Below are positions 21,672 through 46,931 of a stretch of DNA of 64,000 bases, in pieces. A model generated the notes under the pieces. The model was not told the DNA's origin. It saw only the letters and a list, made by a program, of their open reading frames with translations, and made no database searches. How positions within the stretch are numbered: the first letter of the stretch is position 1; each line of letters begins with the position of its first letter. Made by a program: the position numbers and the translations under genes. Origin of the DNA: Verrucomicrobiaceae bacterium (GTDB taxonomy: Bacteria > Verrucomicrobiota > Verrucomicrobiia > Verrucomicrobiales > V1-33); NCBI GenBank assembly GCA_027483175.1, contig JAIXVE010000042.1, forward strand, positions 29 to 64,028, in the 5' to 3' direction.

Positions 21672-21705
21672 TGAGGGAAGAGGAGGGAGTGGAAGGAGAG
21701 GTTGT

Positions 21706-22944
21706 TCAGGGGCGCTTGGCGGCGGCGACGATGGGGTCGTAGGCCTTGCGGGAGCGTTCGCGGGTCTCGGGGAGGGCGGTGGCGAGGGCGTCGGCGAGGG
21801 CCTGGCGGTTTTGCCATGCGGACTGGACTCGGGCGAGGCCAGCGCCTGGGGCGAGGAAGTCCTTGATGGAGATGAGGGCGGCGTTCTGGGTGAGTTCCTT
21901 GCCGAGGAGGTCGTTGAGGATGCCTTCGGCTTTGATGCTGTAGCCGATGACGAGGGTGGGGACGCCTGTGGAGAGGCCGGCGATGGCGGCGTGCATGCGT
22001 TCGGCGACGACGAGGTCGCAGCGGGAGATGATGGCTTTGTAGTCGGAGGCGCTGAAGTCGCCGCCGGCGAGACGGACGCGGGGGTCGTGGCCGATGCGGC
22101 GGAGGATTTCGGTGGCGATGACGCGGTCCTCGTTTTTGGCGGAGGTTTCCTGGACGTGGGGGATGATGATGATGTTGGCGTCGAGGGAAGAGCGGAGCCA
22201 TGAGATGACCTCGATCCATGTATCGACGTGGCGTGAGGCGTCGGAGCCCATCCAGTGGCAGATGGCGGAGCTGGTGCTGAGGGCGATGGTGGGGCGGTCC
22301 GGGAGGGCGCGGTGGTGATTGAAGAGGGCGTCGCCTTCGGTGGCATCGGGCTGGGTGAGGAGGAAGGCGGGATCGGCGACGAGGTGGATGCGGTCGTGGG
22401 GGAGCTTGAGGACGTCGCGGAGGTAGTTGAAGGAAGCGGATTCGCGGACGGTGATGGCGCTGGCGTGTTTTGCCAGGTCGGAGAAGGCGGCGGTGTCCGG
22501 GTTGTTATTGAAGGGCCCGATGGACTGGGCGTGGATGATGAAGGGGACGGCGGCGGCGTGGGCGATGCGGAGGGGTTGGAGGTGGGAGAGGAGCGAGCGG
22601 TGGCCGTATTCCGAGCAGAAGACATCGCCACCGCTGGCGACGACGCAGGAAGCGGTGCGGAGTTCTGCGGCGGCGATGGCGGCGTCCTTGTCGAGGGAGG
22701 GGACGACGGAAGTGAGGAGCTTGCGGAGACGGCCGGCGTAGAGCGGGCGGATGGTGTAGTCGTGGATGAAGCGGACGTCTTTGTCAGGGAGTCTGGAGGC
22801 ATCGAAGTCCGGGGCGCGATCGAGGACGGTGAATGTGGCTCCGGGGAGGCGGAGCCGGAGCTGGGCGATGGTGGAGACGACGAGGGCTTCGACCCCGTGG
22901 TTTCTGAAGGAGGTGATGCCTGTGATGACGATTTTCTGGCTCAT
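21706..22944 (-). CDS. Polysaccharide pyruvyl transferase family protein
   Basis: 412 aa. N-terminal KIVITGITSFRNHGVEALVVSTI and C-terminal ERMHAAIAGLSTGVPTLVIGYSIKAEG resemble WcaK/CsaB-type pyruvyl transferases. Last gene of the EPS array. Confidence 0.6.
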   Translation of the reverse strand: MSQKIVITGITSFRNHGVEALVVSTIAQLRLRLPGATFTVLDRAPDFDASRLPDKDVRFIHDYTIRPLYAGRLRKLLTSVVPSLDKDAAIAAAELRTASCVVASGGDVFCSEYGHRSLLSHLQPLRIAHAAAVPFIIHAQSIGPFNNNPDTAAFSDLAKHASAITVRESASFNYLRDVLKLPHDRIHLVADPAFLLTQPDATEGDALFNHHRALPDRPTIALSTSSAICHWMGSDASRHVDTWIEVISWLRSSLDANIIIIPHVQETSAKNEDRVIATEILRRIGHDPRVRLAGGDFSASDYKAIISRCDLVVAERMHAAIAGLSTGVPTLVIGYSIKAEGILNDLLGKELTQNAALISIKDFLAPGAGLARVQSAWQNRQALADALATALPETRERSRKAYDPIVAAAKRP

Positions 22945-24170
22945 GGGGTGGTGGGTGAGGATTTTGAGGGGATGAGGGAGGAGTAGCGGTTAGCGAGACG
23001 AGCGCCGATGGCGGGCCAGCCGAATTGCTGGGTGGCGGTGTCGATGCCGTGCGATTCGAGGGAAGCGCGGAGGGCGGGGTCGTTGAGGGCGCGGGCGATG
23101 GCCTGGGCGAAGGCCGGGGCGTCGTCGGCGAGGAGGATATTGTGATCGTGGATGAGGTTGAGGCCTTGAGCGCCGATGGTGGTGGAGACGACGGGCGTGC
23201 CGATGGCGAGGGATTCGACGATTTTGAGGCGAGTGCCGCCGCCGATGCGGAGGGGGACCATCTGGAGCCACGAGCGGCGATAGTATGGGCGGACATCGGG
23301 GACCCCGCCGGTGACGGTGACGCCGGTGCGTGAGCCGTAGGCCTGGACCTCGGGGAGCGGGTTTTTGCCGACGACGAGGATGCGGACGTTAGGGACGAGC
23401 TGGAGGAGTGCGTCGTGGATGGAGGAGAAGAACCAGCGGAGTGCGTCGACGTTAGGACTGTAGTCCATGGCTCCGCAGAAGATGACGGTGGGGTCCGGGT
23501 CGCGGGGTTCGGGCGCGGAGGCCGGGTGGAAGTAGTCGAGATCGACGCCGTTGGCGACGACCATGACGGGGGCTTTGGGGGTGATGCGGCGGTGGATGAA
23601 GGTTTCGTCGTCGGGGCCGCAGACGATTTCGAGGGCGGTGGACTTGGCGAGGAGACGTTCGTAGCGCCAGAGTTTGGCGTAGCTTTCCCAGCGGAGGAGA
23701 CGGTCGCGGAGGGAGAAGTGGAGTGTTTTGTGTTCCATGAGCTGGAACTGGAGATCGACGCGGCTGCGGTCGACGACGAAGGGAGTGTGGTGGGCGTGCG
23801 GGAGCACGTAGGGCATGAGGACGAGGTCGCAGATGTGGACGAGGTCGTAGCGGCCGGGGGTGAGGAGCTGATTGATGGTGTTAGCGACCTCGGGTTGCTG
23901 CCAGTGCTGGACGTTGCTGGGGAGCGGGTTGAGGAGACGCTGGGGGAAGAGCTTCTGCCATGGCGGGTGGGCGAAGGGGATGAAGGTGACGGAGCGGCAG
24001 AATGCGGAGAAGACGGCGCGTTTTTCGTCGAGGTCCGGGGATGGTTCGGTGAGGGCGACGAAGTCGACCTCGTGGTGAGCGGCGAGGGCCTTGAGGAGGT
24101 GGAACGTGCGTTGGTAGGTGCCGCGGTCGAGCGGCCACGGGGCGTAGGGGTAGAAGACGAGGAGCTTCAT
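22941..24170 (-). CDS. Glycosyltransferase, GT-B fold (GT4-like)
   Basis: MKLLVFYPYAPWPLDRGTYQRTFHLLKALA...; C-terminal ...PLRIGGGTRLKIVESLAIGTPVVSTTIGAQGL is an E-x7-E-type region. ATGA overlaps on both sides. Confidence 0.8.
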   Translation of the reverse strand: MKLLVFYPYAPWPLDRGTYQRTFHLLKALAAHHEVDFVALTEPSPDLDEKRAVFSAFCRSVTFIPFAHPPWQKLFPQRLLNPLPSNVQHWQQPEVANTINQLLTPGRYDLVHICDLVLMPYVLPHAHHTPFVVDRSRVDLQFQLMEHKTLHFSLRDRLLRWESYAKLWRYERLLAKSTALEIVCGPDDETFIHRRITPKAPVMVVANGVDLDYFHPASAPEPRDPDPTVIFCGAMDYSPNVDALRWFFSSIHDALLQLVPNVRILVVGKNPLPEVQAYGSRTGVTVTGGVPDVRPYYRRSWLQMVPLRIGGGTRLKIVESLAIGTPVVSTTIGAQGLNLIHDHNILLADDAPAFAQAIARALNDPALRASLESHGIDTATQQFGWPAIGARLANRYSSLIPSKSSPTTP

Positions 24171-24700
24171 GGGGCTTCGTTGCAGCGCAGGTTCTGTTCG
24201 GAGATGATTCTGGCGGGGATGCCGACGGCGGTGGCGTTAGGGGGGATGTCTTTGGTGACGACGGAGGAGACCCCGATGATGGCGTGGTCGCCGATGGTGA
24301 CTGCGCCGACGGCTTTGGCACCGTCGCCCATGAAGACGTGGGCGCCGAGGGTGGGGCCTTTTTTTGCGCCGTGGGCGAGGACGAGCCGGACATCGGCGTA
24401 GAGGTCGCAATCCGGGCCGATGGAGGAATGGGGAGCGATGATGAGGCCCATGGGGTGGGGGAGGCGGAGGCCTGGGCCGATGGTGGCGAGTTTGGAGACC
24501 TCGATTTTGAAGAACCAGAAGAGGAGTTTGGCGGCGAAGATGGTGGGGACGTGGTGCTGGGCGCACCAGAACTGGAAGCGGATGAGGGCGACGGCGTGGA
24601 TGCTGTTGAGGGAGAGGCAGAGGGCGGCGCGTTTGAGTGGGCCCGCGGGGAGATAGTCCCGGAGGTTGCGGCGGATATCGGCCTTGAGGTTAGGGAACAT
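24167..24700 (-). CDS. Hexapeptide-repeat O-acetyltransferase (serine acetyltransferase/EpsC-like)
   Basis: Left-handed beta-helix repeats IGPGLRLPHPMGLIIAPHSSIGPDCDLYADVRL...VFMGDGAKAVGAVTIGDHAIIGVSSVV. Confidence 0.8.
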   Translation of the reverse strand: MFPNLKADIRRNLRDYLPAGPLKRAALCLSLNSIHAVALIRFQFWCAQHHVPTIFAAKLLFWFFKIEVSKLATIGPGLRLPHPMGLIIAPHSSIGPDCDLYADVRLVLAHGAKKGPTLGAHVFMGDGAKAVGAVTIGDHAIIGVSSVVTKDIPPNATAVGIPARIISEQNLRCNEAP

Positions 24701-24706
24701 GGCGGG

Positions 24707-25837
24707 TCAGTTGAAGCGGGACCAGAGGGATTGGTAGGCGGCGACGGCGGAGGGCCAGTTGGAGACTGGGGCGGCGAGCTGGGAGGAGAGGAATGCCAGG
24801 TGTTCCGGGACGAGATCCGGGGCCCAGAGGAGGAGCGGGAGGGCGTTGAGGAGACCCTCACGCGGGTAGCGGAGGGCGAGGGGCGAGCAGATGCCTTTGG
24901 GGCCGAAGGCGCGGAGACGGACGAGCGGGTTTTTGAGGAGGGACGTTTCCGGGCACTTCGATGACTTGTTAGATGAGTAGGCGAGGGGTGTGGGGAAGGA
25001 GGCGGAGAGACGGCGGGATTCGAGCCATGAGAAGACGGCCCATGCGGTTTGGGAGACTGAGGCGTGGAGGGCGGCGAGTTCGGATAGGGAGGCGGAGGAG
25101 CGGGCCGGGTGGAGTTTGAATTCCGTGCCGGCGGCGTGGTCGGCGCGGATGGCGTCGATGGGGAGGGACGGTTCAGTCAGGGAGAGGAGCCGCTGGTGGC
25201 GTTCGAGACAGGACCAGTGGTAGAGCCCGTGGGCGGCGAGGAGGGCGTCGCCGATGGCGAGTTGGGCCTTGGCGATGTTGCGGCCGGTGAAGTCGGCGTC
25301 GGCGGAGGAGAAGTCGGGTTGCTGGAGCCGGGCGGCGGCGAAGAGGAGGCCCGAGCAGCGGTTCATGAGGAGCCGGGTGGCTTCGTGGAGAGGGATGCGG
25401 GAGCCGTCGGCGAGGTGGGAGCAGGAGGCGAGGATATCGGGTGGGCCGGTGATGACCCGGTGGCCGGCGACGAGGTCGTAGAAGAACATGGAAGGCCCGC
25501 TGTGCTGGAGCGAGGCGAGCGAGAGGATTTTGAATTCGACGTCGATGCCGAGGGAGGCGGAGTGGCGTTGTTCGAGGGCGTGGATGGCGTGGTGGAAGCG
25601 GCGTTCGTTGAGACGGGGTGGGCCGGAGATGAGGATGAAGAATTCGAGATCGTTGTAGGGTGCGTCGCCGTTGGGGGTGGCGAGGACACCGCCTTCGCCG
25701 CGGCCGTAGCCGCCGCCGAGGATGAGGGCCTGGAGGAGGTTAGGGGGGACGATGGCGCTGAGGTCTGCACCGATGGCGGAGCAGGATTGAGCGAGGAGGG
25801 CCTCGAGTTGGGGGCTGCCGTCGCGGGTGAAGGTCAT
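24707..25837 (-). CDS. Hypothetical protein with Pol-beta-superfamily nucleotidyltransferase motif
   Basis: LILGGGYGRGEGGVLATPNGDAPYNDLEFFIL fits G-[GS]-x(9-13)-D-x-[DE] and is followed by a helical region. No closer family recognised. Confidence 0.5.
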   Translation of the reverse strand: MTFTRDGSPQLEALLAQSCSAIGADLSAIVPPNLLQALILGGGYGRGEGGVLATPNGDAPYNDLEFFILISGPPRLNERRFHHAIHALEQRHSASLGIDVEFKILSLASLQHSGPSMFFYDLVAGHRVITGPPDILASCSHLADGSRIPLHEATRLLMNRCSGLLFAAARLQQPDFSSADADFTGRNIAKAQLAIGDALLAAHGLYHWSCLERHQRLLSLTEPSLPIDAIRADHAAGTEFKLHPARSSASLSELAALHASVSQTAWAVFSWLESRRLSASFPTPLAYSSNKSSKCPETSLLKNPLVRLRAFGPKGICSPLALRYPREGLLNALPLLLWAPDLVPEHLAFLSSQLAAPVSNWPSAVAAYQSLWSRFN

Positions 25838-26712
25838 GGTGTGGGGTCGCGTTGGTAGTCGAGCCAGCCCTGGCGGAAGCCGGCGAGTTTACCGGAGCGC
25901 TGGGCGAAGCGGATGCGTGCGGCGGCGGGGAGTTGGCTGAGTTTGTGGTGCTGGCGGAACCAGCGGAGGTCCTTGCGGAGGTCGGCGGCGGTGCCGAGGG
26001 CGACGGTGCGGAGCCATGAGAAGTCGGAGGGTTTGCCCTGATAGGTGGCGGCCATGGCGCGGGCGTCGCCGAAGGCGCGTTTGCGGGCCTGGGCGGGGGT
26101 GTAGTTGTGGCTGTGCATGGCGACGGAATCCGGGACGTAGGCGATTTCGAAGCCCTCCTTGATGCACCAGCGGGTGTATTCGTCGTCTTCTGCGAACTGG
26201 AGGTCCTCGCGGAAGCCGCGGCGCTGCCAGACATCGCGGCGGATGCCGCTGCTGACCATGCTGAAGAAGTGGTCCCAGTTTGCGGATTCGCGGTTAGGGC
26301 CGAAGCAGCGGTCGTAGTCGTGAGCGAAGACGGCGAGACAGTCCGGGCGGGGGATCTGGCGGGAGAAGGCGGCGGCGGTGCGGGGGTTCTGGAGGGCGTC
26401 GAATAGAGGCTGGAGCCAGAGAGTGCCCTGGGGGGTGGCGTCGGCGTTGAGGAAGATGACGGAGTCGGCGGCGGCGAGGCGCATGCCGGTGTTCATGACC
26501 TTGCTGGGGTTGTACTCGTGGGGTTGGATCTGGATGAAGTGGGCTGGGTTGGCGGCTTTGATGAGGTCCTGGGAGCCGTCGGATGAGCCGCTGTCGATGA
26601 CGATGAGTTCCCATGAGGGGAAGGACTGGGCGGCGAGGGCGGGGAGCGTTTCGCGGAGGGCCCATGCCTCGTTGAACGAGCGCATCACGATGCTGGCGAG
26701 CGGCGGGTTCAT
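25834..26712 (-). CDS. Glycosyltransferase family 2
   Basis: ASIVMRSFNEAWALRETLPALAAQSFPSWELIVIDSGSSDGS..., FLNADATP (D-x-D-like) and a QFAEDDEY region. Confidence 0.85.
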   Translation of the reverse strand: MNPPLASIVMRSFNEAWALRETLPALAAQSFPSWELIVIDSGSSDGSQDLIKAANPAHFIQIQPHEYNPSKVMNTGMRLAAADSVIFLNADATPQGTLWLQPLFDALQNPRTAAAFSRQIPRPDCLAVFAHDYDRCFGPNRESANWDHFFSMVSSGIRRDVWQRRGFREDLQFAEDDEYTRWCIKEGFEIAYVPDSVAMHSHNYTPAQARKRAFGDARAMAATYQGKPSDFSWLRTVALGTAADLRKDLRWFRQHHKLSQLPAAARIRFAQRSGKLAGFRQGWLDYQRDPTP

Positions 26713-26724
26713 GGATAGGAAGAG

Positions 26725-28302
26725 TCAGGGTGCGGACGGACGGAAGCGTGCGGGAAGGCGGGAGAGAACCTTGGATTTCTCGGCGGGGAGGAGGGCGATG
26801 GACCAGATGCCGGCGAGGGCGGCGAGGCCGGTGATGGCCATGCCGAGGAGGGAGGGGAGCCATTGCGGGTTGCCGAAGGTCGGGCCGAGGAGGGCGCGGC
26901 AGAGGAGACCGGTGGCGAGCATGGGGATGCAGGCGAGGAGCGGTCGGGCGATGGTGGAGGAGAAGAGGGTGAGCGGGGATGTGTTGACCTCGCGGGCGGC
27001 CCAGCGCCAGAGGAGCCCCCAGCCGAAGAGGATGGTGGGGAGGACGGAGCCAGCGGCGACCCCGATGACGGCGTCGGACTGCCAGCCGCGGTGGACGAGG
27101 AGGAGTGTTAGGGAAACGGAGAAGAGGATATTGAGGGCGGCTTCGGCGAGGCCCTGCCACATGAGACGGCGTTCCTGGCCGCACATCATGAACATTTTTT
27201 TGAAGACGAGGTGAGTGAGGGCGAGGTGGAAGTACCAGAAGAGGAGGATTTCGCCGACGATGAGCGTGGCGAAGGCGGGTTGTTTTTCGCCGGTGAGGAT
27301 GCGGACGAGGAGGTCGAGGTAGAGAGCGCCGCCGGTGTAGAGAGGTGCGGCGACGAGGACGGTGAGGCGGAGCCCCTTGCGGAACATTTCGTGGAGGGCG
27401 TCGCGGCGGCCGCCGGCGTGGAGGAAGGCGGCGGCTGGGGAGAGGGCGTCGGAGATCTGTTTGGTGATGATGCCGAACATTTCGCCGGCTTTGCCGCCGG
27501 CCTGGTAGAGCGTGACGGCGGGGAGGCCGACGAGGGCACCGGCGACGACCTGATCGGTTTTGTTGCGGAGGAGATTGCTGATCATGTTGAGCCACGCGAA
27601 GAGCGAGAACTTGCCGGTGGAGAAGAGTTCGCTGCGGCTGAAGAGGGAGGGGCGGAGACGAACATCGGGCATGGCGCGGAGGGCGGCGAAGCCAGCGAGG
27701 ATGTCGGGGCCGAGGACGCAGGCGAGGGCGATGGCGAAGACGGCGAAGAGCCCCCAATTGAAGTGGAGGGCGAGGGCGAGGAGGACCGCATTGGCGACGA
27801 GGCCGAGCATGGCGATGCGGTTGGCGGTTTTGAGCTGCTGAAGACCGCGGAGGACCTCGGGGAAGATGCCGAGAGGGAAGCCGAGGGCCATGCCTGCGAA
27901 GAAGAGGACGGTGACCGGGCGGTAGAGTTGGATTTTGTCAGGGGCGACCCCGAGCCAGTGCATGAGCGGGTCGGCGAGGGCCCAGCCGGCGAGCCCGATG
28001 AGGGTAGCGGCGGCGAGGTAGAAGAAGAAGATGGTGCTGAGGGCGCGGCTGAGACGGTCCCAGTCGCGCTTGGCGAGACCTTCGGCGACGCGTTTCTGGG
28101 CGGCGTAGCCGAAGCCGAAGTCGAGGAGGATGCCGTAGCCGAAGACACTCCAGAGGAGGGACCAGAAGCCGAAGTCATCGCGGCTGAGGCCCTGATAGAG
28201 CATGCGGAACGTGACGAGGCCGAGGACGATGCGGAGGATGGTGCGGCCGTAGTTGGAGAGGGCCCCGCTCCATGCGGCTTTTTTGACGTCGTCGGTGTTC
28301 AT
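26725..28302 (-). CDS. wzx: Wzx-type oligosaccharide flippase (MOP superfamily polysaccharide biosynthesis protein)
   Basis: Track ORF (to 28590) trimmed to ATG 28302, which forms an ATGA overlap with the upstream GT stop. It is a multi-TM protein beginning MNTDDVKKAAWSGALSNYGRTILRIVLGLVTFRML... with about 12-14 hydrophobic segments. Confidence 0.75.
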   Translation of the reverse strand: MNTDDVKKAAWSGALSNYGRTILRIVLGLVTFRMLYQGLSRDDFGFWSLLWSVFGYGILLDFGFGYAAQKRVAEGLAKRDWDRLSRALSTIFFFYLAAATLIGLAGWALADPLMHWLGVAPDKIQLYRPVTVLFFAGMALGFPLGIFPEVLRGLQQLKTANRIAMLGLVANAVLLALALHFNWGLFAVFAIALACVLGPDILAGFAALRAMPDVRLRPSLFSRSELFSTGKFSLFAWLNMISNLLRNKTDQVVAGALVGLPAVTLYQAGGKAGEMFGIITKQISDALSPAAAFLHAGGRRDALHEMFRKGLRLTVLVAAPLYTGGALYLDLLVRILTGEKQPAFATLIVGEILLFWYFHLALTHLVFKKMFMMCGQERRLMWQGLAEAALNILFSVSLTLLLVHRGWQSDAVIGVAAGSVLPTILFGWGLLWRWAAREVNTSPLTLFSSTIARPLLACIPMLATGLLCRALLGPTFGNPQWLPSLLGMAITGLAALAGIWSIALLPAEKSKVLSRLPARFRPSAP

Positions 28303-29573
28303 GGGGCGCGGTGCCAGCGGGAGGCAGCGTGGGCTTCGGCGAGCTGGTAGATGGCTTCGAGGCGGAGGGTGATGCGGCTCCAGTCGTAGTGGGCGAGGGC
28401 TTCGGCGCGGCCGGCGTTGCCGAGGGAGGCGCGGAGGGTGGGGTTCTGGTGGAGGAGGGAGAGCTGGGCGGCGAGTTGTGAGGGAGCGTCGGGGTCGGAG
28501 GGGTTGAAGAAGAGCCCGGTTTCGCCGTCGCGGATGAGGGATTGGAGCCCGCCGATGCGGGAGGCGACGACTGGTTTGGCGGCGCACCATGCTTCGAGGA
28601 CGACGATGCCGAATGGTTCGTGTCGGGAGGCTAGGGTGAAGACATCGGCGGCGTGGTAGGCGTCGACGAGGGAATTGGAGTCGTTGCCGAGGCCCGGGAG
28701 GATGGTGACGGCGTGTGTGATGTTGTTAGAGCTAATGAAGTCGCGGAGCTGCTGAGCGTAGGCTGGCTGGGTTTCGGGGCCGATGATGAGGAGACGGGCG
28801 TTGGGGGCGGAGGGGAGGAAGCGGGAGAAGGCTTCGAGGAGCGTGAGCTGATTTTTCTGGGAGTCGATGCGGCCGATGGCGACGAGGAGGAAGGCGTCGG
28901 CGGGGATGTTGTGGGCGAGGCGGAAGGCGGGGCCGTTGCCGGAGGAGAAGCGAGCGGAGTCGACCCCGTTAGGGAGATAGGAGACGCGGTCGTGGGGGAG
29001 GGAAGCGCGGGCTTTTTCGGCTTCGCTGGCACCGACGCAGATGACGTGGTCGGCGTCGTCGAGGACCTTGCGGGCGCCGAGGAGAGCGCCGAAGACGCGG
29101 CCCCATTCGAATTTGCCTTCGATGGGTTTGGTGAGGTCGGAGAGTTCTGCGGCGGGGACGTCGAAGATGCCGCCGTGGAGGGAGACCACGTAGGGTTTGC
29201 GGCGGAGTCGGGCGGCGGTGCGGACGGTGCCGCCGAGGCGTTTGAGGGCGTGGGCGTGGAAGAGCCGGACGTCTGGCTGGCGGAGGAGGGCGCGGAGGAG
29301 TGATAGGGAGAGGAGATTGCCGCCTTTTTTGTCCATGGCGGCGCGGTCGGCGGGGGAGAGGCCGAAGAAAGGATAGGAGTGGGGGTAGCGGTGGACGGGG
29401 ATACCGGAGATGGATTCCTCGCGCTGGGAGGCGAGGGCCATGGAAGTGATGATGAGCGGGTGGAGGCCGGCGAGCTGCTGCTGGCGGGAGATTTCGAGGA
29501 TGACGGTTTCGGTGCCGCCCCATTCGTGGGCGACGAAGCGTCTGGGCACGTGGACGATGGTGCCTGAGGTCAT
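28299..29573 (-). CDS. Glycosyltransferase family 4 (GT-B)
   Basis: ...FHAHALKRLGG..., SRHEPFGIVVLEAWCAAKPVVASRIGGLQSLIRDGETGLFFNP (E-x7-E motif region). Confidence 0.85.
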   Translation of the reverse strand: MTSGTIVHVPRRFVAHEWGGTETVILEISRQQQLAGLHPLIITSMALASQREESISGIPVHRYPHSYPFFGLSPADRAAMDKKGGNLLSLSLLRALLRQPDVRLFHAHALKRLGGTVRTAARLRRKPYVVSLHGGIFDVPAAELSDLTKPIEGKFEWGRVFGALLGARKVLDDADHVICVGASEAEKARASLPHDRVSYLPNGVDSARFSSGNGPAFRLAHNIPADAFLLVAIGRIDSQKNQLTLLEAFSRFLPSAPNARLLIIGPETQPAYAQQLRDFISSNNITHAVTILPGLGNDSNSLVDAYHAADVFTLASRHEPFGIVVLEAWCAAKPVVASRIGGLQSLIRDGETGLFFNPSDPDAPSQLAAQLSLLHQNPTLRASLGNAGRAEALAHYDWSRITLRLEAIYQLAEAHAASRWHRAP

Positions 29574-30739
29574 GGTGAGGAGCGGGCGGCGGAGTGGAAC
29601 TGGACCTCACGTTCCATGAGTTTGTAGATGTGAGGAATGTGGGTGACGTCGTCGGGGACGTCGTTGTGGCTGGTGAAGAGCGTGGCGTAGCTCTGGGGGT
29701 CGGTGGGGTGGTAGCCGTGCATGGCGCGGATGGGTCGTTCGCCCATGTGGCTAGGGACGATGAGGACCCCTTCGCGGGCGAGCCAGATGAGTTCGCCGAA
29801 GGCCTGATCGTCGAACCATGCGCGGTAGTGGCGGAGTTCGGATTCCGGCATGATGCGGCCGTCGGGGACGGATTCGAGGACGGCGGTGATGCGTTCACGG
29901 ACGCCGGGTTTAAGGAACCAGAAGCGGGCCATGGTGGAGTCGTAGACGACGGCGTAGTCGACGCCCATGGTTAGGTTGAGGGCGTCGATTTTGGATCGGA
30001 GGTCGAGGTGGTGGTCGCAGTTGGCCATGCCGTGGTCGCTGAAGACGTGGAGACGGACCTCGCGGTAGTGCTGGCGTGCGGCGTCCATGACGGTGGTGAT
30101 CCAGGCGTTGTAGTGGTCGAGTTTTTTCGGGATTTCGGGGGAATCGTTACCGACCATGTGGAGGAGCCCGTCGAGGCCGGCCCAGTACTGGAAGGCGAAG
30201 TCGATGCGTTCCGAGTTGATGTCGGCGAGGAGCCTGCGGAGGTGTTCTTCTTCCGGGGTGGAGGGGTCGGTGACGAAGTAGGGGATTTTTTCTGATTCGA
30301 GGAGGTCGAAGATATTGGGGCCGCGGTTCATGCCGCCGGGTTTGAGCGGGCTTTTCTTTTCTGTGAAGTCGAAGAGGTGGATGTACCTGAAGGGGATGTT
30401 GTAGAGGTCGAAGTAGCCGCGGAATTTGAGCTGGACCTTGACGAATTTGGTTAGCCAGCGGCGGAAGATGCGGCGGCTGGTGACGGCGGAGGGGAGCCAG
30501 CGGAGCCAGCGGAGGTGGCGGAAAGGGGACTGGGGCGGGTTGTAGACGAAGTAGCACCAGTTGCGGTGTTCGTCTGGCCAGCGGCCGGAGAGGATGGAGG
30601 GGACGCAGGTGGAGCTGTAGCCGAAGACGCTTTCGAGGCGGCGGCGGTGCGGGGCGAGGGAGGAGAGGAACGGGTGGTTGCGGACGATTTCCCAGCCGCA
30701 GGCGTCGACCATGATGAAGAGGGAGAGACGGTCTTTCAT
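29570..30739 (-). CDS. Alkaline-phosphatase-superfamily enzyme (type I phosphodiesterase / nucleotide pyrophosphatase-like)
   Basis: Track ORF trimmed to ATG 30739 (ATGA overlap with the REC gene stop). LFIMVDACGWE (metal Asp), GYSSTCVPSILSGRWPDEH (nucleophile region) and HVFSDHGM. Confidence 0.7.
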   Translation of the reverse strand: MKDRLSLFIMVDACGWEIVRNHPFLSSLAPHRRRLESVFGYSSTCVPSILSGRWPDEHRNWCYFVYNPPQSPFRHLRWLRWLPSAVTSRRIFRRWLTKFVKVQLKFRGYFDLYNIPFRYIHLFDFTEKKSPLKPGGMNRGPNIFDLLESEKIPYFVTDPSTPEEEHLRRLLADINSERIDFAFQYWAGLDGLLHMVGNDSPEIPKKLDHYNAWITTVMDAARQHYREVRLHVFSDHGMANCDHHLDLRSKIDALNLTMGVDYAVVYDSTMARFWFLKPGVRERITAVLESVPDGRIMPESELRHYRAWFDDQAFGELIWLAREGVLIVPSHMGERPIRAMHGYHPTDPQSYATLFTSHNDVPDDVTHIPHIYKLMEREVQFHSAARSSP

Positions 30740-31107
30740 GGGTTTTGGGAAGTTAGGCGGGCGATGGCGGCGAGGAGTTCGGTGGGGCTGAAGGGTTTGG
30801 TGAGGAAGAGGGCGGCACCGGATTCTTCGGCCTGCTGGCGGGTGAGATTGTGGCCTCGGGCGGTGAGCATGATGACCGGGATGGAGGCGGTGGCGGGGTT
30901 GGATTTGAGGGCGCTGAGAGCGGCGAGCCCGTCCATGACTGGCATGATGATGTCGAGGATGACGACATCGGGGGTGGTGGCGGTGACGGCGGCGACGGCG
31001 GCGGCTCCGTCGGTGCAGGCGGTCCATGAGTGGCCGGCCTTGCGGAGCGTCATCTCGAGGAGGCGGAGCATGTGAGGGGCGTCTTCGGCGATGACGAGCG
31101 TGGCCAT
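30736..31107 (-). CDS. Stand-alone CheY-like response-regulator receiver
   Basis: 123 aa. VIAEDAP..., phospho-acceptor context DVVILDIIMPVMDG, MLTARG, FLTKPF. No output domain. Confidence 0.9.
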   Translation of the reverse strand: MATLVIAEDAPHMLRLLEMTLRKAGHSWTACTDGAAAVAAVTATTPDVVILDIIMPVMDGLAALSALKSNPATASIPVIMLTARGHNLTRQQAEESGAALFLTKPFSPTELLAAIARLTSQNP

Positions 31108-31139
31108 GGGAGTGGAGGGGATGGAGGCTGGGGTGGGGG

Positions 31140-32900
31140 TCAGTCGCAGGCGAGGACGAGGAACGTCTGGTCGTCGGCGAGGGCTGGGGCGTCTGGCGCG
31201 GAGGAGGAGGCGAGGCGTTTGAGGAGTTGTTCTCTGATGTCTGCGGCGGAGGGTTGGGAGCGGCAGATGTCAGCCATCCATGAGGAGACGTCTGAGGGTT
31301 CTGAGAAGGAAGGGCGGGAGTTGCGAGGGTCGGTGAGGCCGTCGGTGTAGGCGAGGATGCGGGTGCCCTTGGTGATGGGGATGCCGGTTTCGTCGAAGTC
31401 CGGGGAGCGGAGGATGCCGATGGGAGGGTGAGAGGGCATGACTTCGACGAGATTGCCTGAGGCGTCGGCGACGATGACTGGGCAGTGGCCGGCGTTGGCG
31501 ATGCGGATGAGGCGGCTGCGGTTGTCGACGAAGCCGACGGCGACGGTGACGAACATTTCGAGACGGTCGAAGTCGTCGTAGAGTTGAGAGGCGGCGCGGG
31601 CGACGGCGCGAGCGGGGGACTGGTGGAGCTCGTGCATGGAGCGGAAGACCGAGCGGGTGACGGCGGCCATCATGGAGGCGGCGACGCCTTTGCCCATGAC
31701 GTCTGCGATGACGAAGAAGAAGCCCATGTTGTTCCATGGGATGATGTCGTAGAAGTCGCCGCCGATGGTGAGGGCGCTTTCGCAGTGGCCGGCGGCGCTG
31801 ACGCCTGCGACGGGGGCCTGGGCGCGAGGTTCGAGGGATTTCTGGATCGTGGCGGCGAGTTCGAATTCGCGGCGGGCGACGGAGGCGGCGATGGCGGCTT
31901 CTGCGTGGCGTCTGCTGAGGGCTTCCTGGTTGAGGAATTCTGCGAAGGTGTGGACGATGGAGACTTCTCCGGCGTTGAGCGGGGTAGGAGAGGAGTAGCG
32001 GCCGAGGCTGATGAGGCCCATGAGTTCGTCACCGGAGTAGAATGGGTGGACGAGGCCAGCGAGGGCGGGGGAGTCTGGGGAGGAGGGGTGGGGATGTGGT
32101 GGATGTTCGATCCACTGATCCTGGCGGGAGAGGATGGCGGCGTTTTCGAGGTCTGGGGAGGAGACGGAAGCGCCGAGAGGGCAGCCGATGGAGGCGAGGG
32201 GTGTGAGTTCGGAGTTGGCGACGATGCTGAGGGTGCCGGTGTCCGAGCGGGTGACGGTGACGAGGTGGCGGAGGAGGCGTTCTGCGAATTCAGCGAGAGT
32301 GGAGGACTGGCGGGATTCAGCGGTGAAGTGGAAGATGGCGGAGAGGCTTTCGTAGCAGGAGGCGAGTTCTTCGGTCATGCCGTCGAGGGTGGCCTCGAGG
32401 GAGTGGGCGGGGTCTGGTGGAGGGGGGGTGGGAGGAGGTGTGGGAGGGGAGAAGGGACGTTCGAGAGTGAGGATATTTTCGTGAGGGAGGCGGAGGTAGG
32501 AGCGGTGGGAGGTGAGGGAGTGGATGAGGAAGAGGCCGCGGCCGGATTCGGCGTAATCGTCAGGGAGCTGGGGTGAGTCCGGCCATTCGAAGCCGTCGGT
32601 GTGGTCGTGGACGGCGACGGAGATTTTGTCAGGGAAGATGAAGGCCCTGACGTCCCATGAGCGAGGAGTTGCGGAGGGGCTGGCGTATTCGACGGCGTTG
32701 TTGCCTGCTTCGCTGATGAGGAGTTCCCATGTGGCGAGTTCCTGTTCGTCGGAGATGCCCTGGGAGGCGAGGAACGAGCGGAGGCCAGTGCCTGCCTCGC
32801 GGACGGCGTGGAGGTTACATGGGCCGTTCCAGAGCCATGCGATGCCGGTGGTGGACCGGGAGGAGCCTTGGGAGGCGTGCTGGGCTGGAGGGGGCGGCAT
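31140..32900 (-). CDS. Partner-switching enzyme: RsbW/SpoIIAB-type Ser kinase domain + GAF-like region + PP2C/SpoIIE phosphatase domain
   Basis: N-terminal ISEAGNNAVEYA (N-box) and ESGRGLFLIHSL (G2). The middle region is GAF-like. C-terminal GDFYDIIP, ADVMGKGVAASMMAA, IANAGHCP, LAYTDGLTD and DDQTFLVLACD are SpoIIE/PP2C motifs. Confidence 0.8.
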   Translation of the reverse strand: MPPPPAQHASQGSSRSTTGIAWLWNGPCNLHAVREAGTGLRSFLASQGISDEQELATWELLISEAGNNAVEYASPSATPRSWDVRAFIFPDKISVAVHDHTDGFEWPDSPQLPDDYAESGRGLFLIHSLTSHRSYLRLPHENILTLERPFSPPTPPPTPPPPDPAHSLEATLDGMTEELASCYESLSAIFHFTAESRQSSTLAEFAERLLRHLVTVTRSDTGTLSIVANSELTPLASIGCPLGASVSSPDLENAAILSRQDQWIEHPPHPHPSSPDSPALAGLVHPFYSGDELMGLISLGRYSSPTPLNAGEVSIVHTFAEFLNQEALSRRHAEAAIAASVARREFELAATIQKSLEPRAQAPVAGVSAAGHCESALTIGGDFYDIIPWNNMGFFFVIADVMGKGVAASMMAAVTRSVFRSMHELHQSPARAVARAASQLYDDFDRLEMFVTVAVGFVDNRSRLIRIANAGHCPVIVADASGNLVEVMPSHPPIGILRSPDFDETGIPITKGTRILAYTDGLTDPRNSRPSFSEPSDVSSWMADICRSQPSAADIREQLLKRLASSSAPDAPALADDQTFLVLACD

Positions 32901-32919
32901 GGGAAAGGCGGGGGCGGGG

Positions 32920-33219
32920 TCAGGCGACGATTTCGAAGATGCGGTGGAGGCGAGTGAGTTCGAGCACCTGCATGATGCCTGGGCGAGGGGAGAGGAGGCG
33001 GAAGAGACCCTGGCGTTCGTGGGCGAGTTTCTGGATGGAGATGAGAGCGCCGAGGCCGCTGGAGTCGAGGAATTCGAGGTCGGTGCAGTCGAAGTCGATG
33101 GCGGTGAGGCCTGGGGTGAAGCGGAGGCGGACCTGATTTTTGACCTCTGCGGCGGTGCCTGCGGTGAGTTCGCGGAGGCTGGAGATGGTGAGGATGGAGT
33201 TGGCGGTGGATGTTTTCAT
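32920..33219 (-). CDS. STAS-domain anti-sigma-factor antagonist-like protein (RsbV/SpoIIAA/SypA-like)
   Basis: 99 aa. DCTDLEFLDSSGLGALI carries the conserved phosphorylatable Ser context (DSSGLG). Confidence 0.85.
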   Translation of the reverse strand: MKTSTANSILTISSLRELTAGTAAEVKNQVRLRFTPGLTAIDFDCTDLEFLDSSGLGALISIQKLAHERQGLFRLLSPRPGIMQVLELTRLHRIFEIVA

Positions 33220-40446: not shown

Positions 40447-42345
40447 TCATAAATCTGTGGTGTGGTGGAGGAGGGCTGGGAAGGAGATGAGATTCGGGTC
40501 GCGGGGGAGGATCTCGGAGATGCCGAGGGATTTGAGGTGGATGATTTGAGCTGGGTCGAGGCCTGAGTCGACGAGGGCGATTCTGGAGTGGGGGAAGGAG
40601 GCGGTGAGGGAGGAGGCGAAGGCGTCCGGGTGATCTGAGGAGCTGTCGAGGTCAGCGATGACGAGGGAGTGTGCTGGGGGGGTGGTGGCGGTGGGGGATG
40701 AGGGGTTTTGGGTGGTGACGAGGGCGCCTGATTTTTCGAGGCGGCGCTGCATGAGGGTGCGGAGGAGACGGTCGTTGCAGAGGAGGAGGACGTCAGGCTG
40801 GGAATGGGGAGGCGGGGATTCGGCTGGGGGTGGGGATGGTGGGGGAGGGGATGGGGTGAGGGATGGGGTGAGGGATGGGGCTGGGGTTTGGATCGGGAGA
40901 GTGAAGTGGAAGGTGCTGCCGTGGCCTGGGGAGGAGTCGACGAGGATTTCGCTGAGCATGGCGTTGACGATACGCTGGCTGATGGCGAGGCCGAGGCCTG
41001 TGCCGCCGAATTTGCGGGTGGTGGAGGAGTCGCCCTGGGAGAACGTCTGGAAGAGGCGCTCGCGTTGTTCGTCTGTGATGCCGATGCCCGAGTCTTCGAT
41101 GGCGAAGCGGATGGCCGGGTGGCCGTCTGGGGTGGAGGCGGAGGTGAGGGAGAGGGAGACGTGGCCAGAGCGGGTGAATTTGACGGCGTTGCTGACGAGG
41201 TTGATGAGGACCTGGCGGAGTCTGGTGGGGTCTGAGAGGATGATTGGGGGGATGTTTGGGTCGATGGATTTTTCGAGGGCGAGGCCTTTTTCTGCGGCTT
41301 TGGGGAGGAAGAGACTGATGATGTCGCGGATGACCGGTTCGAGGGGGACGGGTTTGGATTCGAGGGAGAGGGAGCCTGCTTCGATTTTGGAGAAGTCGAG
41401 GATGTCGTTGAGGATGGCGAGGAGGCTTTCGCCGGAGGCGTGGATGGTTTCGACGTAGTCGCGCTGGGTGGGGTCGAGGCGGGTGGTGAGGAGGAGTTCG
41501 GTCATGCCGATGACCCCGTTCATGGGGGTACGGATTTCGTGGCTCATGGTGGCGAGGAAGTCGCTTTTGGCGCGGTCGGCGGCTCTGGCTTCTTCGGTGG
41601 CCTTGATGAGGACGGCGATGCTCGAGCTGAGTTTGCGGTGATAGCTCCAGACGAGGACGCCGGCGAGGAGTGCCATGGAGAGGGCACCGAGGCCGATGGT
41701 GATGGAGTTGCGGTGGATGTCGTCGACGTGGTGTTCGAAGTCGGCGAGTTCCATGTCGAGGCCGACGATAGCGATGACCTTGCCGGAGGCGTCTTTGATG
41801 GGGGCGAAGCCGGTTTGGAAGGTGCCCCATGCGTCTTTCCATGGTTTTGGGGTGACGGTGGGGATGCCTGTGGTGAAGGCTTCGAAGAGCTGAGGGGGAG
41901 CGCCTGGGAAGGGCTGCATGATGTGGGCTTTATCGTCGACGCCGTCGTGGTCGGAGTCGCCTTCAGCGGCGGTGTCGAGGATGAAGTGGGGTGCGCCATT
42001 GAGGAGGATGGCGGTGTAGACGTAGCGGAATTTTTCGGGGCCTTCGCAGGCGGCTTTGGCGGCGTCGAGTTCTTTGAGGGCGAGGAGGTAGGGTTCGGAT
42101 AGTTCCTGGGAGCGGGAGGTGAATGAGAGGTGGAGAGCTGGGTCGACGGCGAAGGAGCAGGCGATGGCGGAGCGGCGGATGGCGGAGCGGAGGTCTTCGA
42201 GGTCTTCGGCTTCGTCGTGGACGTGGAAGTTGGCGAGGACGATGAGGGTGGCGACGAGGAGGGCGAGGCCTGCGACGGCGGCGCTGACGAGCGGCTTCAT
42301 GCCGGGGGGCCGCAGTTGCTGAGTGAGATCTGGAGAGGAGGGCAT
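40447..42345 (-). CDS. Membrane sensor histidine kinase with periplasmic Cache-like domain and C-terminal receiver-like region
   Basis: TM segment [22 protein letters not shown]. Cache-like ...[29 protein letters not shown]-box [20 protein letters not shown]. HATPase NAVKFT and DSGIGI...GGTGLGLAI. Pro-rich linker, then a REC-like tail. The start may be Met16 (42300). Confidence 0.85.
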
Positions 42346-42376: not shown

Positions 42377-43447
42377 TCAGGGGGTGATGCCGAGGTTGAG
42401 GCCGACTGGGCTGGCGGCTCCTGCGGCGCGCGCTCCTTCGTTGGCGGCGATGGTGCGGGCGAAGGTGGAGATGACGAGGTCTGCGTAGGCGGCGAGGGAG
42501 TTGGGAGAGGATTCGGGGATGAAGACGAGGTCTTTGGGTTTGAGGAGGACGTCGGGGGATTTGCCGGAGAGGATGGTTTCTGCGTTAACGACGGCGATTT
42601 CGGGGTCGCGGAGGGAACCTCTGACGATGGCGACCTTGGTTAGTTTAGCGCCTTTGATGAAGCCGCGGCAGTGGGCGATGGCGGTGAGGAGGGTGAGTTG
42701 GTCTTTGAAGGCGACGGATCTGGGCTGGTAGACGGCGCCCATGACATAGACCTCGCTGCCGAGGGCGGAGGGGAGGTAGATGAAGTCGTCCGGCTGGAGG
42801 TAGATATTCTGAGAGGTGTCGCCTTTGCGGATGAGGCTGTTGAAGTCGATGGGGACGAGCTGGCCTTTGCGGATGAGGAAGCTGTGGTGGAGGTCGGCGA
42901 GTTCTTCGGTGGATCCTGACATGCGGGAGGTGAAGAGACCGCCGGCTTTGCTGATGGCTTCGAGGACGGTCATGGGTTGGGCGAGTTCGTAGAGGCCGGG
43001 GGTGCTGATGCGGCCGAGGACCCAGACGCGGCGGCTGTGGACTTCGCGGAGGGTGATGCTGACCTGGGGGGACTGGACGAACTGGGAGAGGCCGTGTTCG
43101 AGGAGTTTGGTGGTATCTGCGAGGGTGAGGCCCCAGACCTGCTGGCCCTGGAGGAGGTGGAAGTAGATGCGGCCGTCGGGGCCGACGAAGGTGGTTTGGG
43201 GGCCATCGCCGCTGCCGAGGAGTTCGATGTCGATGACGTCGCCTGGGCCGAGCCGGAATTCCGAGGGATCCGGGGAGAGGAGTGCTGGGTTGAGGGAGTG
43301 GTTGAGGGAGGTTTTGACGACGTCAGCGGAGGTGGCGGTTGCGGTGGTGTGCGCGTCGAAGCGTCTGGCCTGCTGGCTGGTGCCGGAGCAGCTGGCGAGG
43401 GTGGCTGCGGCGAGGAGCGGGAGGAGGCGGGAGAGGCGAGGCGTCAT
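42377..43447 (-). CDS. Outer-membrane polysaccharide export lipoprotein (OPX, Wza-like: Poly_export + SLBB)
   Basis: Track ORF trimmed to ATG 43447 (ATGA overlap with the upstream stop). Lipobox [26 protein letters not shown]...[15 protein letters not shown]-type Poly_export motif. SLBB-like [12 protein letters not shown]. Confidence 0.8.
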
Positions 43448-46400: not shown

Positions 46401-46614
46401 GTTGGACCTGGGCGGTGTATTTGGTGGTGAAGCGCCAGTGGCCGAGGGCGAAGGCGGTGGCGGCGCCGAGGAGAGCGGCGATGAGGATCCAGGGCCAGCC
46501 TTTGGCGATGTGGATGGCGACGCGGAGGATGTCGAAGGGGAGGAGGGATTTGACTGGGGCAGGGGGAGCCTGGGGATCAGTGGGCGGCCGTGGGAGCGGG
46601 GTGGGAGCGATCAC
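43444..46614 (-). CDS. Fusion protein: Wzz/PCP chain-length-determinant domain + degenerate BY-kinase-like P-loop domain + C-terminal OPX (Poly_export/SLBB) domain
   Basis: N-terminal Wzz-like segment with a TM (WPWILIAALLGAATAFALG), a long coiled-coil and a second TM (LLIVSFIGAFLAAAAIIAY). Walker-A-like SASSNEGKST. Walker-B-like LVILVELPP. Internal signal-like FGLSLTLASLSLTSLTDA, then a Pro-rich linker. OPX motifs LGPGDLVNLQVFG...INPDGTINYLQV and NEVYILGAVGSPG. Confidence 0.75.
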   Translation of the reverse strand: MIAPTPLPRPPTDPQAPPAPVKSLLPFDILRVAIHIAKGWPWILIAALLGAATAFALGHWRFTTKYTAQVQLVRREMTTTFPASELGESFRPRQFNAATVSAMMHSGPLMEKTAASLSPKISASAFQQEIVIRPEKNTDLITVAWTTDVSPAFAAQGLNKYAENVASLTSDLQAQEAKELLSFLSSQMERTEQELTTVQKELMAFSRKSGLADPDKETEAALKQLSELDLRIESTRIEFDSIDDRIARTEAELAKQDPATQQLNEARSRLAELLTQYTAEYPLVVEQQARVTALEKKRRSNAPTDPTASFQSTGNTVANSLYLDILSLRSSKESLKKEIESLTAFRANLKTKLDSIPDQQLALSRFRGRVAALEETRNLLGGRLREAQLYSERALGYYRLFAPASPDAVSISSRSLKLLIVSFIGAFLAAAAIIAYRAISAATSDSIVSPSDLRRLTRAPVIASLPDQADMDPAALALWRFTTWATLTRSIPAPTDAAFVAGLLSASSNEGKSTWLHLLARAALDRGHKVLAISHGDHASPSNSVVPIADALNSPDRILSHLRSASPAALEINVPSSWLWNHDSRNLWRSALASWSAEHGLVILVELPPASNLDALLLAESLPALLWISQSGKLLREDVSPIIDTLKTSGIHLSAALLNRIPPIFQKLPDLAKFGLSLTLASLSLTSLTDAQDHPPELEPLAPPPAIHGDLPPVSPSQAPAPDNSLPPAGDPLPPLTPDPSKPFTPLPQPKPPTPLAPWQERLTLGPGDLVNLQVFGRKEFTRTQVPINPDGTINYLQVHGFKAAGLTIDELRSGLSTALRNYITNAQIIVTPGAFRSKKYFLLGTVIDRGAYTLDRPMSLLEAAARARGIATGLLEQNTVEIADMRRAFIVRDGRKLPVNFSKLFFEGDLSQNIQLQPGDYIYFPSNIVNEVYILGAVGSPGHTGVTEGLSALGAITVRGGFSRTAWKKKILIVRTPPDKKQPDIITLDAAAILAGKQKDVLLQPRDLIYVHEKPWQRANEILALAMRAFVQTGAATWTGENIGPILPDPSQPAR

Positions 46615-46931
46615 TGGGGCGGCGGTTGGCTGTTGGGGCTGATCCGGTGGGCGGGGCGAGCGCGGCGGGCAGTGTTACAATTTAAGCGTGATGGAGTTGG
46701 GTTTCAAGCTGCGGGACGCATAGCTAGATGCGTAGAGGATGGAAGTGGCGGAGGGGATGGAAAAGCGCTTGTGGATGGGTTGAGCCCCCGCAAATGGGGG
46801 GGAGGATTGATTCGATCGATGGCATCAGGGAAAACCTTAAGGAGAATCAGGGAGGCGCTGAGCGGCCTTGTCGAGAGATCGGGCGTTGTACGGACGTTCA
46901 AGGCGCGTCCGTGGGTGCCGGGTCGAGGAAA

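Follow-up and report, generated by a model that had tools for sequence, protein, structure and literature searches.

A kinase-GAF-phosphatase protein, a free STAS protein and a detached receiver in a verrucomicrobial exopolysaccharide operon: a predicted SypE-like phospho-switch

The SypE protein of Vibrio fischeri contains an RsbW-like serine kinase domain at the N-terminus and a PP2C domain at the C-terminus. SypE toggles the phosphorylation of Ser56 in the STAS protein SypA, of which the unphosphorylated form is active, and the phosphorylation state of the SypE receiver selects the kinase or the phosphatase mode (PMC4517449). The activity of SypE is set, below the level of transcription, by the nitric oxide (NO)/HnoX-controlled HahK together with SypF (PMC12369376). 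In Synechocystis, XssP is described as the priming glycosyltransferase of synechan (PMC8205485), and in its Anabaena homolog All4160, phosphorylation of the STAS domain is inactivating; this system requires the REC-PP2C protein HenR (bioRxiv 10.64898/2026.04.08.717354; Mol Microbiol 2026, PMC13555669). Here, these systems are compared with three consecutive genes on the minus strand of a 64,000-nt stretch of DNA from a Verrucomicrobiaceae bacterium (contig JAIXVE010000042.1; the whole stretch is denoted the window). The trio spans positions 30736-33219, with the receiver stop codon at one end and the STAS start codon at the other, and encodes a single-domain STAS protein, a protein combining kinase, GAF and PP2C domains (hereinafter KGP), and a stand-alone receiver (REC). 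The original prediction, made from the DNA sequence alone, described the trio as a sigma-less, 'split SypE'-like partner-switching module within an exopolysaccharide (EPS) operon.

We hold, with slightly more belief than doubt, that these genes comprise a phospho-switch of the partner-switching type that is modulated by a haem NO/O2-binding (H-NOX) sensor encoded in the same EPS operon, and that the unphosphorylated STAS protein acts post-transcriptionally on the priming step of EPS synthesis.

The STAS protein, KGP and the receiver

For comparison, 44 related verrucomicrobial loci were collected by a family-motif scan of GTDB representative genomes, in which the lower-ranked matches are PP2C-only. 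The STAS protein, encoded 19 nt upstream of KGP, shows significant similarity to pfam01740 (PF01740, E = 1.4e-12) and to TIGR00377, anti-sigma factor antagonist (E = 5.7e-15). In the HMMER alignment, its segment D52-S53-S-G-L-G is in register with D57-S58-S-G-L-G of Bacillus subtilis SpoIIAA, in which S58 is the phosphorylated serine; the protein can be aligned with TM1442 as well. Across 37 STAS orthologs from the related loci, conservation of the D-S-x-G-x-G motif that contains Ser53 reaches at least 90%. The intact phosphoserine context DSSGLG noticed originally is borne out, and Ser53 is predicted to be the phospho-acceptor.

Two domains of KGP are recognized by Pfam above the cut-offs, HATPase_c_2 (PF13581) at residues 30-146, E = 6.8e-15, and SpoIIE/PP2C (PF07228) at residues 393-584, E = 9.3e-37, and both are present in 75/75 members of the family when scanned one by one. 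The AlphaFold2 model (pLDDT 88.7, pTM 0.54) agrees on this arrangement and consists of three domains: a GHKL domain at residues 20-149, with block-mean pLDDT of 93-96 for the most part and 78-89 in three blocks; a linker, rich in proline and modelled with low confidence, that covers residues from about 150 to 163 and falls under pLDDT 50 at 155-159; a 35-residue helix (164-198), an alpha/beta core (202-301) and a 46-residue helix (310-355); and the PP2C domain at 367-585. The whole-model Foldseek search is dominated by the PP2C domain, for which the best matches are SiaA (6k4e), RssB (3f79), SpoIIE (5ucg) and Rv1364c (3ke6), with E-values from 1e-9 to 6e-12, and it offers no independent fold support for the kinase or GAF domains. 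For the N-terminal domain, similarity at the sequence-profile level comes from comparison of the KGP family profile with protein structures, which identifies RsbW (6m36, 4e-11, profile positions 39-132) and SpoIIAB (1til, 1l0o and 1th8, about 2e-5); Rv1364c is matched by the family profile as well (6e-24). The predicted union of an N-terminal RsbW-type kinase and a C-terminal PP2C phosphatase in one polypeptide thus stands, and the lack of kinase-fold similarity that had been named as its possible refutation was not encountered. In the alignment of 75 homologs, the kinase residues E64, N67, N68, D99, F104, G120, R121 and G122, which in our reading fall in the N, G1 and G2 boxes for ATP binding, are invariant, as are D382, D400, D520, D576 and D577 of the phosphatase, presumably the metal-binding aspartates given the PP2C motifs. 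Both domains look catalytically competent, judging by these residues.

The central region of KGP was originally read as GAF-like, an assignment that is sub-threshold for the protein taken alone and is upheld at the family level: GAF is detected in 39/75 members (best 1.2e-8) and GAF_2 in 37/75 (best 4.5e-10), and positions 190-298 of the family profile match 3o5y, the structure of a GAF domain (E = 0.004). In the same member-by-member scan, Response_reg and PAS domains are found in 0/75. The GAF region contains the invariant D261 and P286 along with W263 and H285, which are at least 90% conserved; D261, W263 and H285 lie in the core and may mark a pocket for a specific ligand or an interface. 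Just ahead of the GAF core, a helix bears the motif MTEELxxCYESLSAIF (32310-32411, minus strand, residues 164-197), which is among the most conserved in KGP, with E178, L179, E184, S185 and F190 invariant in the 75 homologs. This conservation seems to exceed the needs of a purely structural helix, suggesting that the helix may be a docking or dimerization surface. A coiled-coil linker helix has been proposed as a general device coupling sensors to PPM phosphatases (PMC12143880), and in the model of KGP, the helix 310-355 between the GAF and PP2C domains matches such a linker.

The receiver (PF00072, Response_reg, E = 2e-26) is a separate protein with intact acceptor residues, as anticipated: among 29 REC orthologs, conservation is at least 90% for D9 of the acidic pocket, for the acceptor D52 and for the lysine motif K104-P-F-S-P. 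It is the sole single-domain receiver found in the operon and is co-conserved with the hybrid kinase encoded upstream. REC also matches the EpsW model of NCBIfam, although below its threshold (E = 9.5e-17). A protein from another locus, P0116 (L001:4946-7585), encoded in a single MAG, was considered as a natural PP2C-REC fusion linking KGP and REC, and was rejected as a probable frameshift read-through, assembly artefact or pseudogene: its PP2C match stops at about residue 551 and is followed by about 40 unrelated residues and then by an intact REC that starts at its own Met. The KGP of the same locus contains an internal stop separating the kinase from the GAF-PP2C part.

Operon context, PGT/pseudo-PGT pair and H-NOX sensor

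The genes of the window that are relevant to this analysis are listed in the table. The gene string that starts with the H-NOX gene is one tightly packed Wzx/Wzy-type EPS operon: the H-NOX/hybrid kinase, kinase/GT4, REC/PDE and PDE/GT4 junctions are 4-nt overlaps, the genes at the remaining junctions are at most 32 nt apart, and no terminator-like sites were detected between the operon genes. A scan for sigma-70 promoters yields zero sites, which is uninformative for Verrucomicrobiota. The start codon of the phosphodiesterase (PDE) gene, confirmed from the sequence, overlaps the REC stop codon (ATGA), and the gene is syntenic in related loci. Translation of PDE appears to be coupled to that of REC and of the next GT4 gene, and PDE possibly has a role in polymer modification. 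At positions 46728-50668, a HisKA_3-type histidine kinase with multiple PAS/GAF domains and a response regulator of the LuxR type are encoded on the plus strand, divergent from the EPS locus at its upstream end; the pair is a candidate for transcriptional regulation of the locus.

Table. Coordinates of the EPS operon genes and of the domains of KGP in the window.
Feature	Position	Strand	Basis
Wza-like export protein with a chain-length-determinant-like N-terminus	43444-46614	-	
Second Wza-like export protein	42377-43567	-	
Histidine kinase	40447-42345	-	
H-NOX (haem NO/O2-binding) sensor, 186 aa	39777-40337	-	PF07700
Hybrid histidine kinase, 1116 aa	36430-39780	-	Pfam
GT4 glycosyltransferase, 401 aa	35228-36433	-	Glycos_transf_1, 8.3e-35; syntenic in related loci
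Small phosphoglycosyl transferase (PGT), priming enzyme, 252 aa	34476-35234	-	Bac_transf
Hexapeptide/pseudo-PGT protein, 407 aa	33248-34471	-	Hexapep, hhalign
Single-domain STAS protein, 99 aa	32920-33219	-	PF01740, TIGR00377
KGP (kinase-GAF-PP2C), 586 aa	31140-32900	-	Pfam
RsbW/SpoIIAB-type GHKL serine kinase domain, KGP residues 20-149	32454-32843	-	
GAF region, KGP residues 164-355 (core 202-301)	31836-32411	-	
PP2C/SpoIIE-type serine phosphatase domain, KGP residues 367-585	31146-31802	-	
Stand-alone receiver (REC), 123 aa	30736-31107	-	PF00072
Phosphodiesterase/alkaline-phosphatase-family protein (PDE), 389 aa	29570-30739	-	PF01663, 3.6e-14
GT4 glycosyltransferase	28299-29573	-	
Flippase	26725-28590	-	
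GT2 glycosyltransferase	25834-26712	-	
Additional transferases, a pyruvyl transferase among them	about 21700-25800	-	

The genes immediately upstream of the trio encode the priming enzyme, the small phosphoglycosyl transferase (PGT), and a protein that appears to be its inactive paralog. The PGT matches Bac_transf (1.1e-64) and TIGR03025, EPS_sugtrans (7.4e-82), and contains the catalytic Asp-Glu within 'IDELPQ'. The hexapeptide protein next to it consists of a degenerate nucleotidyltransferase-like N-terminus, with weak RmlA/GlmU-type matches at residues 18-102 and the G-x-G-x-R signature absent on reading the sequence, followed by a hexapeptide beta-helix (Hexapep, E = 3e-05), a hydrophobic segment and a PGT-like C-terminus. 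No Pfam family is above threshold in this protein, and a BLASTP comparison with the PGT gives no match. An hhalign comparison of its residues 258-403 with the PGT family detects similarity with the probability of 95% (E = 3.7e-8), placing DELPQ over RWPSL, in agreement with the original identification of a pseudo-PGT beside the PGT. The catalytic dyad is thus exchanged for R318 and W319, which are invariant in 16 orthologs, and this exchange defines the protein as a pseudo-PGT. Further invariant motifs (D56-R57-P58, R62, W71 and H381) suggest that a non-catalytic function has been preserved. As a conserved pseudoenzyme, the protein is an obvious candidate for a subunit that regulates priming.

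Fusions of STAS domains to transferases are found in two settings. In XssP, encoded on the Synechocystis plasmid pSYSM, a STAS domain (residues 9-99) is fused to Bac_transf (124-310); the PGT domain of XssP is 41% identical to the PGT of the window (E = 9e-44), and the two STAS domains can be aligned with the serine in register. In three loci of Limisphaerales ('subdivision 3'; L008:12232-13731, L010:11479-13047 and L013:4930-6510), a WecG/TagA-type transferase with two C-terminal STAS domains is encoded right after REC. D-S-T-G is present in each STAS domain of the L008 and L010 fusions, the two that were translated, and an open reading frame search of L008 with the window proteins detects no free-standing STAS beside KGP. 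Independently of each other, both kinds of fusion suggest that STAS acts on enzymes and not on sigma factors.

The H-NOX gene goes beyond the original prediction, as do the wide occurrence of the locus in Verrucomicrobiota and the STAS-enzyme fusions. The H-NOX protein matches HNOB (PF07700, E = 1.3e-47) and the H-NOX structures of Nostoc Alr2278 (E = 2e-56). Its H104 is aligned with the template histidine in 'LHAR', and Y133-x-T135-x-R137 with Y-Q-S-T-R; these are presumably the proximal haem histidine and the YxSxR haem-propionate motif, respectively. The adjacent hybrid kinase contains HNOBA (5.5e-16), PAS_9 (8e-13), GAF_2 (5.7e-18), HisKA (4.1e-22), HATPase_c (2.5e-30), Response_reg (6.7e-31) and Hpt (1.1e-12) domains, so that the HPt-bearing hybrid kinase originally reported upstream of the trio indeed belongs to the same packed gene string. 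By residues and adjacency, the two proteins are predicted to form a pair of H-NOX and H-NOX-associated histidine kinase, and an H-NOX gene lies directly upstream of the hybrid kinase gene in L002, L006, L010, L023, L029 and L081 as well. The adjoining of an H-NOX gene and a kinase that bears HNOBA suggests NO (or another diatomic gas) as the input of the EPS operon; the signal is probably NO.

The related loci are labeled as Akkermansiaceae/Haloferula, Limisphaerales, Pedosphaera, Verrucomicrobiaceae, Opitutales, Pelagicoccus and Cerasicoccus, and the order hybrid kinase, GT4, PGT, pseudo-PGT, STAS, KGP, REC, PDE, GT4, flippase, GT2 recurs in many of the 44. Counting only loci with enough flanking sequence, a STAS gene is found within 700 bp upstream of KGP in 30/42 loci and within 5 kb upstream, on either strand, in 36/42; the pseudo-PGT is within 2.5 kb upstream in 23/31, the PGT within 4 kb upstream in 22/31, REC within 600 bp downstream in 28/40, and a homolog of the hybrid kinase within 9 kb upstream in 14/21. 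Synteny of the trio in these loci shows that the association is beyond chance. In the near relative L081, the 3.35-Mb metagenomic contig Ga0621872_00004 of JGI 3300071567, KGP is 83% identical and the same genes appear in the same order. In Opitutales, the STAS gene is divergent, on the opposite strand upstream of the PGT, and the pseudo-PGT directly abuts KGP; hence, the most stable core consists of PGT, pseudo-PGT and KGP, with STAS nearby. A database search yields more than 1,500 relatives of KGP, and among the best 120 of these, most are full length (555-606 aa) and a few are shorter fragments, named ones including Akkermansiaceae, Luteolibacter, Haloferula, Rubritalea, Verrucomicrobiaceae and other Verrucomicrobiota. 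In an exhaustive profile search of 1.84 billion representatives, the matches listed (the best 150, to E = 1e-84) all belong to the KGP family, with no SypE-like protein among them, and are mostly full length, of 555-650 aa. At 50% identity, the family thus comprises no fewer than about 150 clusters. The few KGP members that carry names are all from Verrucomicrobiota.

The window is compositionally asymmetric. Over the full length, the GC skew, (G-C)/(G+C), amounts to +0.38, and all 2-kb bins have values of 0.28-0.47, far above the bacterial replication skews known to us. At third codon positions, genes on the plus strand have skews of +0.43 to +0.76 and those on the minus strand of -0.72 to -0.82, indicating that the asymmetry is independent of the coding strand; on the top strand, G exceeds C at these positions several-fold, up to about 9-fold. 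L081 shares the skew (-0.38, opposite orientation), and the other 44 verrucomicrobial loci have absolute skew of at most 0.21. A literature search on extreme GC skew found nothing specific. At the position of the PGT in L081, where a PGT homolog is expected on the operon strand, the public gene call (L081:7669-8433) is a 254-aa protein on the opposite strand with no Pfam match, possibly a gene-calling error favored by the extreme skew. Elsewhere in the window, positions 250-10719 of the plus strand encode a giant surface adhesin-like protein of 3489 aa, with about 16 SdrD_B repeats and CarboxypepD_reg, SpaA and GEVED domains, so that the long minus-strand open reading frames overlapping it are probably spurious.

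The proposed switch and its alternatives

In the proposed phospho-switch, the H-NOX protein would sense NO and modulate the hybrid kinase, as suggested by the adjacency of the two genes and by H-NOX/kinase pairs elsewhere, including HnoX-HahK of V. fischeri (PMC12369376). The HPt domain of the hybrid kinase would pass the phosphate to the stand-alone REC, and phospho-REC, together with the GAF input conveyed via the linker helix, would shift KGP between the kinase and phosphatase modes, by analogy with SypE. The kinase domain of KGP would phosphorylate Ser53 of STAS and the PP2C domain would remove the phosphate, reactions that residue conservation supports strongly. The unphosphorylated STAS protein would then bind the small PGT and/or the pseudo-PGT and permit EPS synthesis, as the STAS-transferase fusions, SypA and All4160 suggest, and phosphorylation of STAS would switch EPS synthesis off; the sign of the regulation is a guess. 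We infer every phosphotransfer step, which way the regulation runs, what the ligand is and what STAS targets, as well as the small-molecule input via GAF and the wiring from HPt through REC to KGP that were part of the original prediction.

A more specific version of this scheme would make STAS the phosphorylation-gated activator of a heteromeric priming complex formed by the small PGT and the pseudo-PGT, with the latter, which is doubly dead, as the STAS receptor, and an NO-sensing H-NOX phosphorelay gating the committed step of EPS synthesis post-transcriptionally in many Verrucomicrobiota. We consider this version doubtful; if true, it would supply a long-missing kind of target for STAS proteins of the SypA type.

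Several observations weigh against the proposed switch. The receiver gene is missing beside KGP in 12/40 loci and, where the upstream flank is long enough, the H-NOX gene was found in no more than about half of the loci, so that both inputs seem to be accessory or replaceable. In L020, L027, L028, L036 and L039, KGP is accompanied by REC and usually by STAS, with no detectable EPS genes nearby, which means that the module is not strictly tied to this operon. The single-sequence match of KGP to GAF is below the Pfam cut-off (E = 1e-3). The STAS-PGT fusion comes from another phylum, and the fusions within the phylum involve a different transferase, of the WecG type. Finally, KGP may interact, in the manner of OsaC, with a sigma factor whose gene lies outside the 64-kb window.

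This last point corresponds to a canonical partner switch with transcriptional output, in which the KGP kinase domain would be the anti-sigma factor for a distant sigma factor and STAS would compete for it. The N-terminal domain of KGP is a bona fide homolog of RsbW/SpoIIAB, some members of the KGP family are encoded outside EPS loci, and OsaC reportedly uses the kinase domain at its N-terminus to bind SigB (PMC10117811) and has GAF and PAS domains upstream of its PPM phosphatase domain (PMC12143880). Given that the kinase domain of OsaC binds SigB, the module is putatively rather than certainly 'sigma-less'. Nevertheless, no sigma-factor domain is detected by Pfam in the approximately 35 larger open reading frames of the window, small ones not having been scanned exhaustively, and the original claim that no sigma gene is nearby holds to this extent (the 44 related loci were screened only with the window proteins, and sigma genes were not searched for there). 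Furthermore, in SypE, the fused kinase/phosphatase of a polysaccharide locus, the STAS output is below transcription, and the STAS-transferase fusions in loci of the same type favor control at the level of enzymes. Thus, an OsaC-like switch is, in our view, distinctly unlikely.

The other two alternatives retain the kinase-phosphatase cycle and differ in what is attached to it. STAS might act on a different target, namely, a GT4 or another transferase, the Wzx flippase, the PCP/OPX export proteins, or PDE, and both the WecG/TagA type of the within-phylum fusions and the apparent translational coupling of the syntenic PDE to REC speak for such a target. However, the PGT, the pseudo-PGT and KGP are adjacent even in Opitutales, where STAS has moved, and the characterized precedent is a STAS domain acting on a priming transferase, so that a different target seems unlikely. 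It is likewise conceivable that KGP is controlled by GAF only, and that REC is a phosphate sink or an independent single-domain output similar to EpsW of Myxococcus. The loci lacking REC beside KGP, the sub-threshold match to the EpsW model, and the apparent nature of P0116 as a read-through product rather than a true fusion are all compatible with an independent REC. Adjacency of KGP and REC in 28/40 loci across several orders, along with the role of the SypE receiver in choosing between the kinase and phosphatase modes (PMC4517449), renders it improbable.

If KGP, STAS and REC indeed constitute an operon-embedded phospho-switch, the module looks like a widespread post-translational control point of EPS synthesis in the phylum, and its input is probably a gas (NO). 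Verrucomicrobiota, an understudied phylum, are abundant in soil, water and guts, and very little has been described of how they regulate their surface polysaccharides. With all components in one operon and STAS encoded near the PGT and its dead paralog, this is a compact system in which to find what sigma-less STAS proteins, such as SypA, bind. The module also shows that receiver and GAF sensor modules placed before PPM phosphatases can be exchanged or split off.

Comparison with described systems

By analogy, the closest functional parallels of this module appear to be SypE/SypA, with SypF and HnoX-HahK, and HenR/All4160. Similarly to SypE (PMC4517449), KGP unites opposing serine kinase and serine phosphatase domains, and similarly to SypA, its presumed STAS substrate has a conserved serine, is encoded in a polysaccharide locus and has no known sigma target. 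A phosphorelay with an HPt-bearing hybrid kinase and an input from an NO-sensing H-NOX protein and its associated kinase would also be shared with the syp system (PMC4517449, PMC12369376). In contrast to SypE, in which the receiver is central, KGP has a GAF domain in this position and the receiver is the product of a separate downstream gene; unlike the case of syp, the H-NOX protein and the HPt kinase are encoded inside the same operon, and the verrucomicrobial locus, from a different phylum, contains no SypG-like sigma-54 regulator. Lacking a central receiver, the defining feature of SypE, KGP is by this feature not a member of the SypE family. Therefore, the designation 'split SypE' holds as an analogy, for the fused kinase and PP2C domains and for the STAS protein in the locus, and fails with respect to the central receiver.

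In the cyanobacterial system, that is, HenR, All4160 and Alr3423 of Anabaena and XssP of Synechocystis, as in the switch proposed here, a kinase and a PP2C phosphatase target a serine of STAS, and what they control is an EPS enzyme and not a sigma factor; the phosphatase is under receiver control, and the PGT is of the same type. The parts are, however, connected differently: in cyanobacteria, STAS is fused to the PGT, the kinase and the phosphatase are separate, and REC is fused to PP2C, whereas in the verrucomicrobial locus, STAS is free, the kinase and the phosphatase are fused, REC is free, and a dead PGT paralog intervenes.

With respect to domain content, the nearest described protein to KGP appears to be OsaC of Streptomyces coelicolor. 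In OsaC, kinase, PAS/GAF and PP2C domains follow each other in one polypeptide. A kinase-like N-terminus and a GAF domain in a PPM phosphatase protein are thus common to OsaC and KGP (PMC12143880, PMC10117811), but OsaC has PAS domains that are absent in KGP and its 75 homologs, binds SigB in osmotic-stress signaling and is encoded outside an EPS locus; no adjacent STAS, REC or PGT context has been reported for it. The same three catalytic and substrate folds are found in RsbU/RsbV/RsbW and SpoIIE/SpoIIAA/SpoIIAB of Bacillus and in Rv1364c of Mycobacterium. The Bacillus systems, however, consist of three separate proteins, and the alternative partner of the kinase is a sigma factor, whereas Rv1364c has a different domain order, namely, PAS, PP2C, kinase, STAS.

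Control of EPS synthesis by a sigma-less partner switch is established in Vibrio and now in Anabaena, and accordingly, the mechanism proposed here is not categorically new. In agreement with the original prediction, no description of such a module in Verrucomicrobia was found in the searchable literature. What is new is the kinase-GAF-phosphatase fusion with a detached receiver, encoded in an H-NOX-led EPS operon next to a PGT and its dead paralog.

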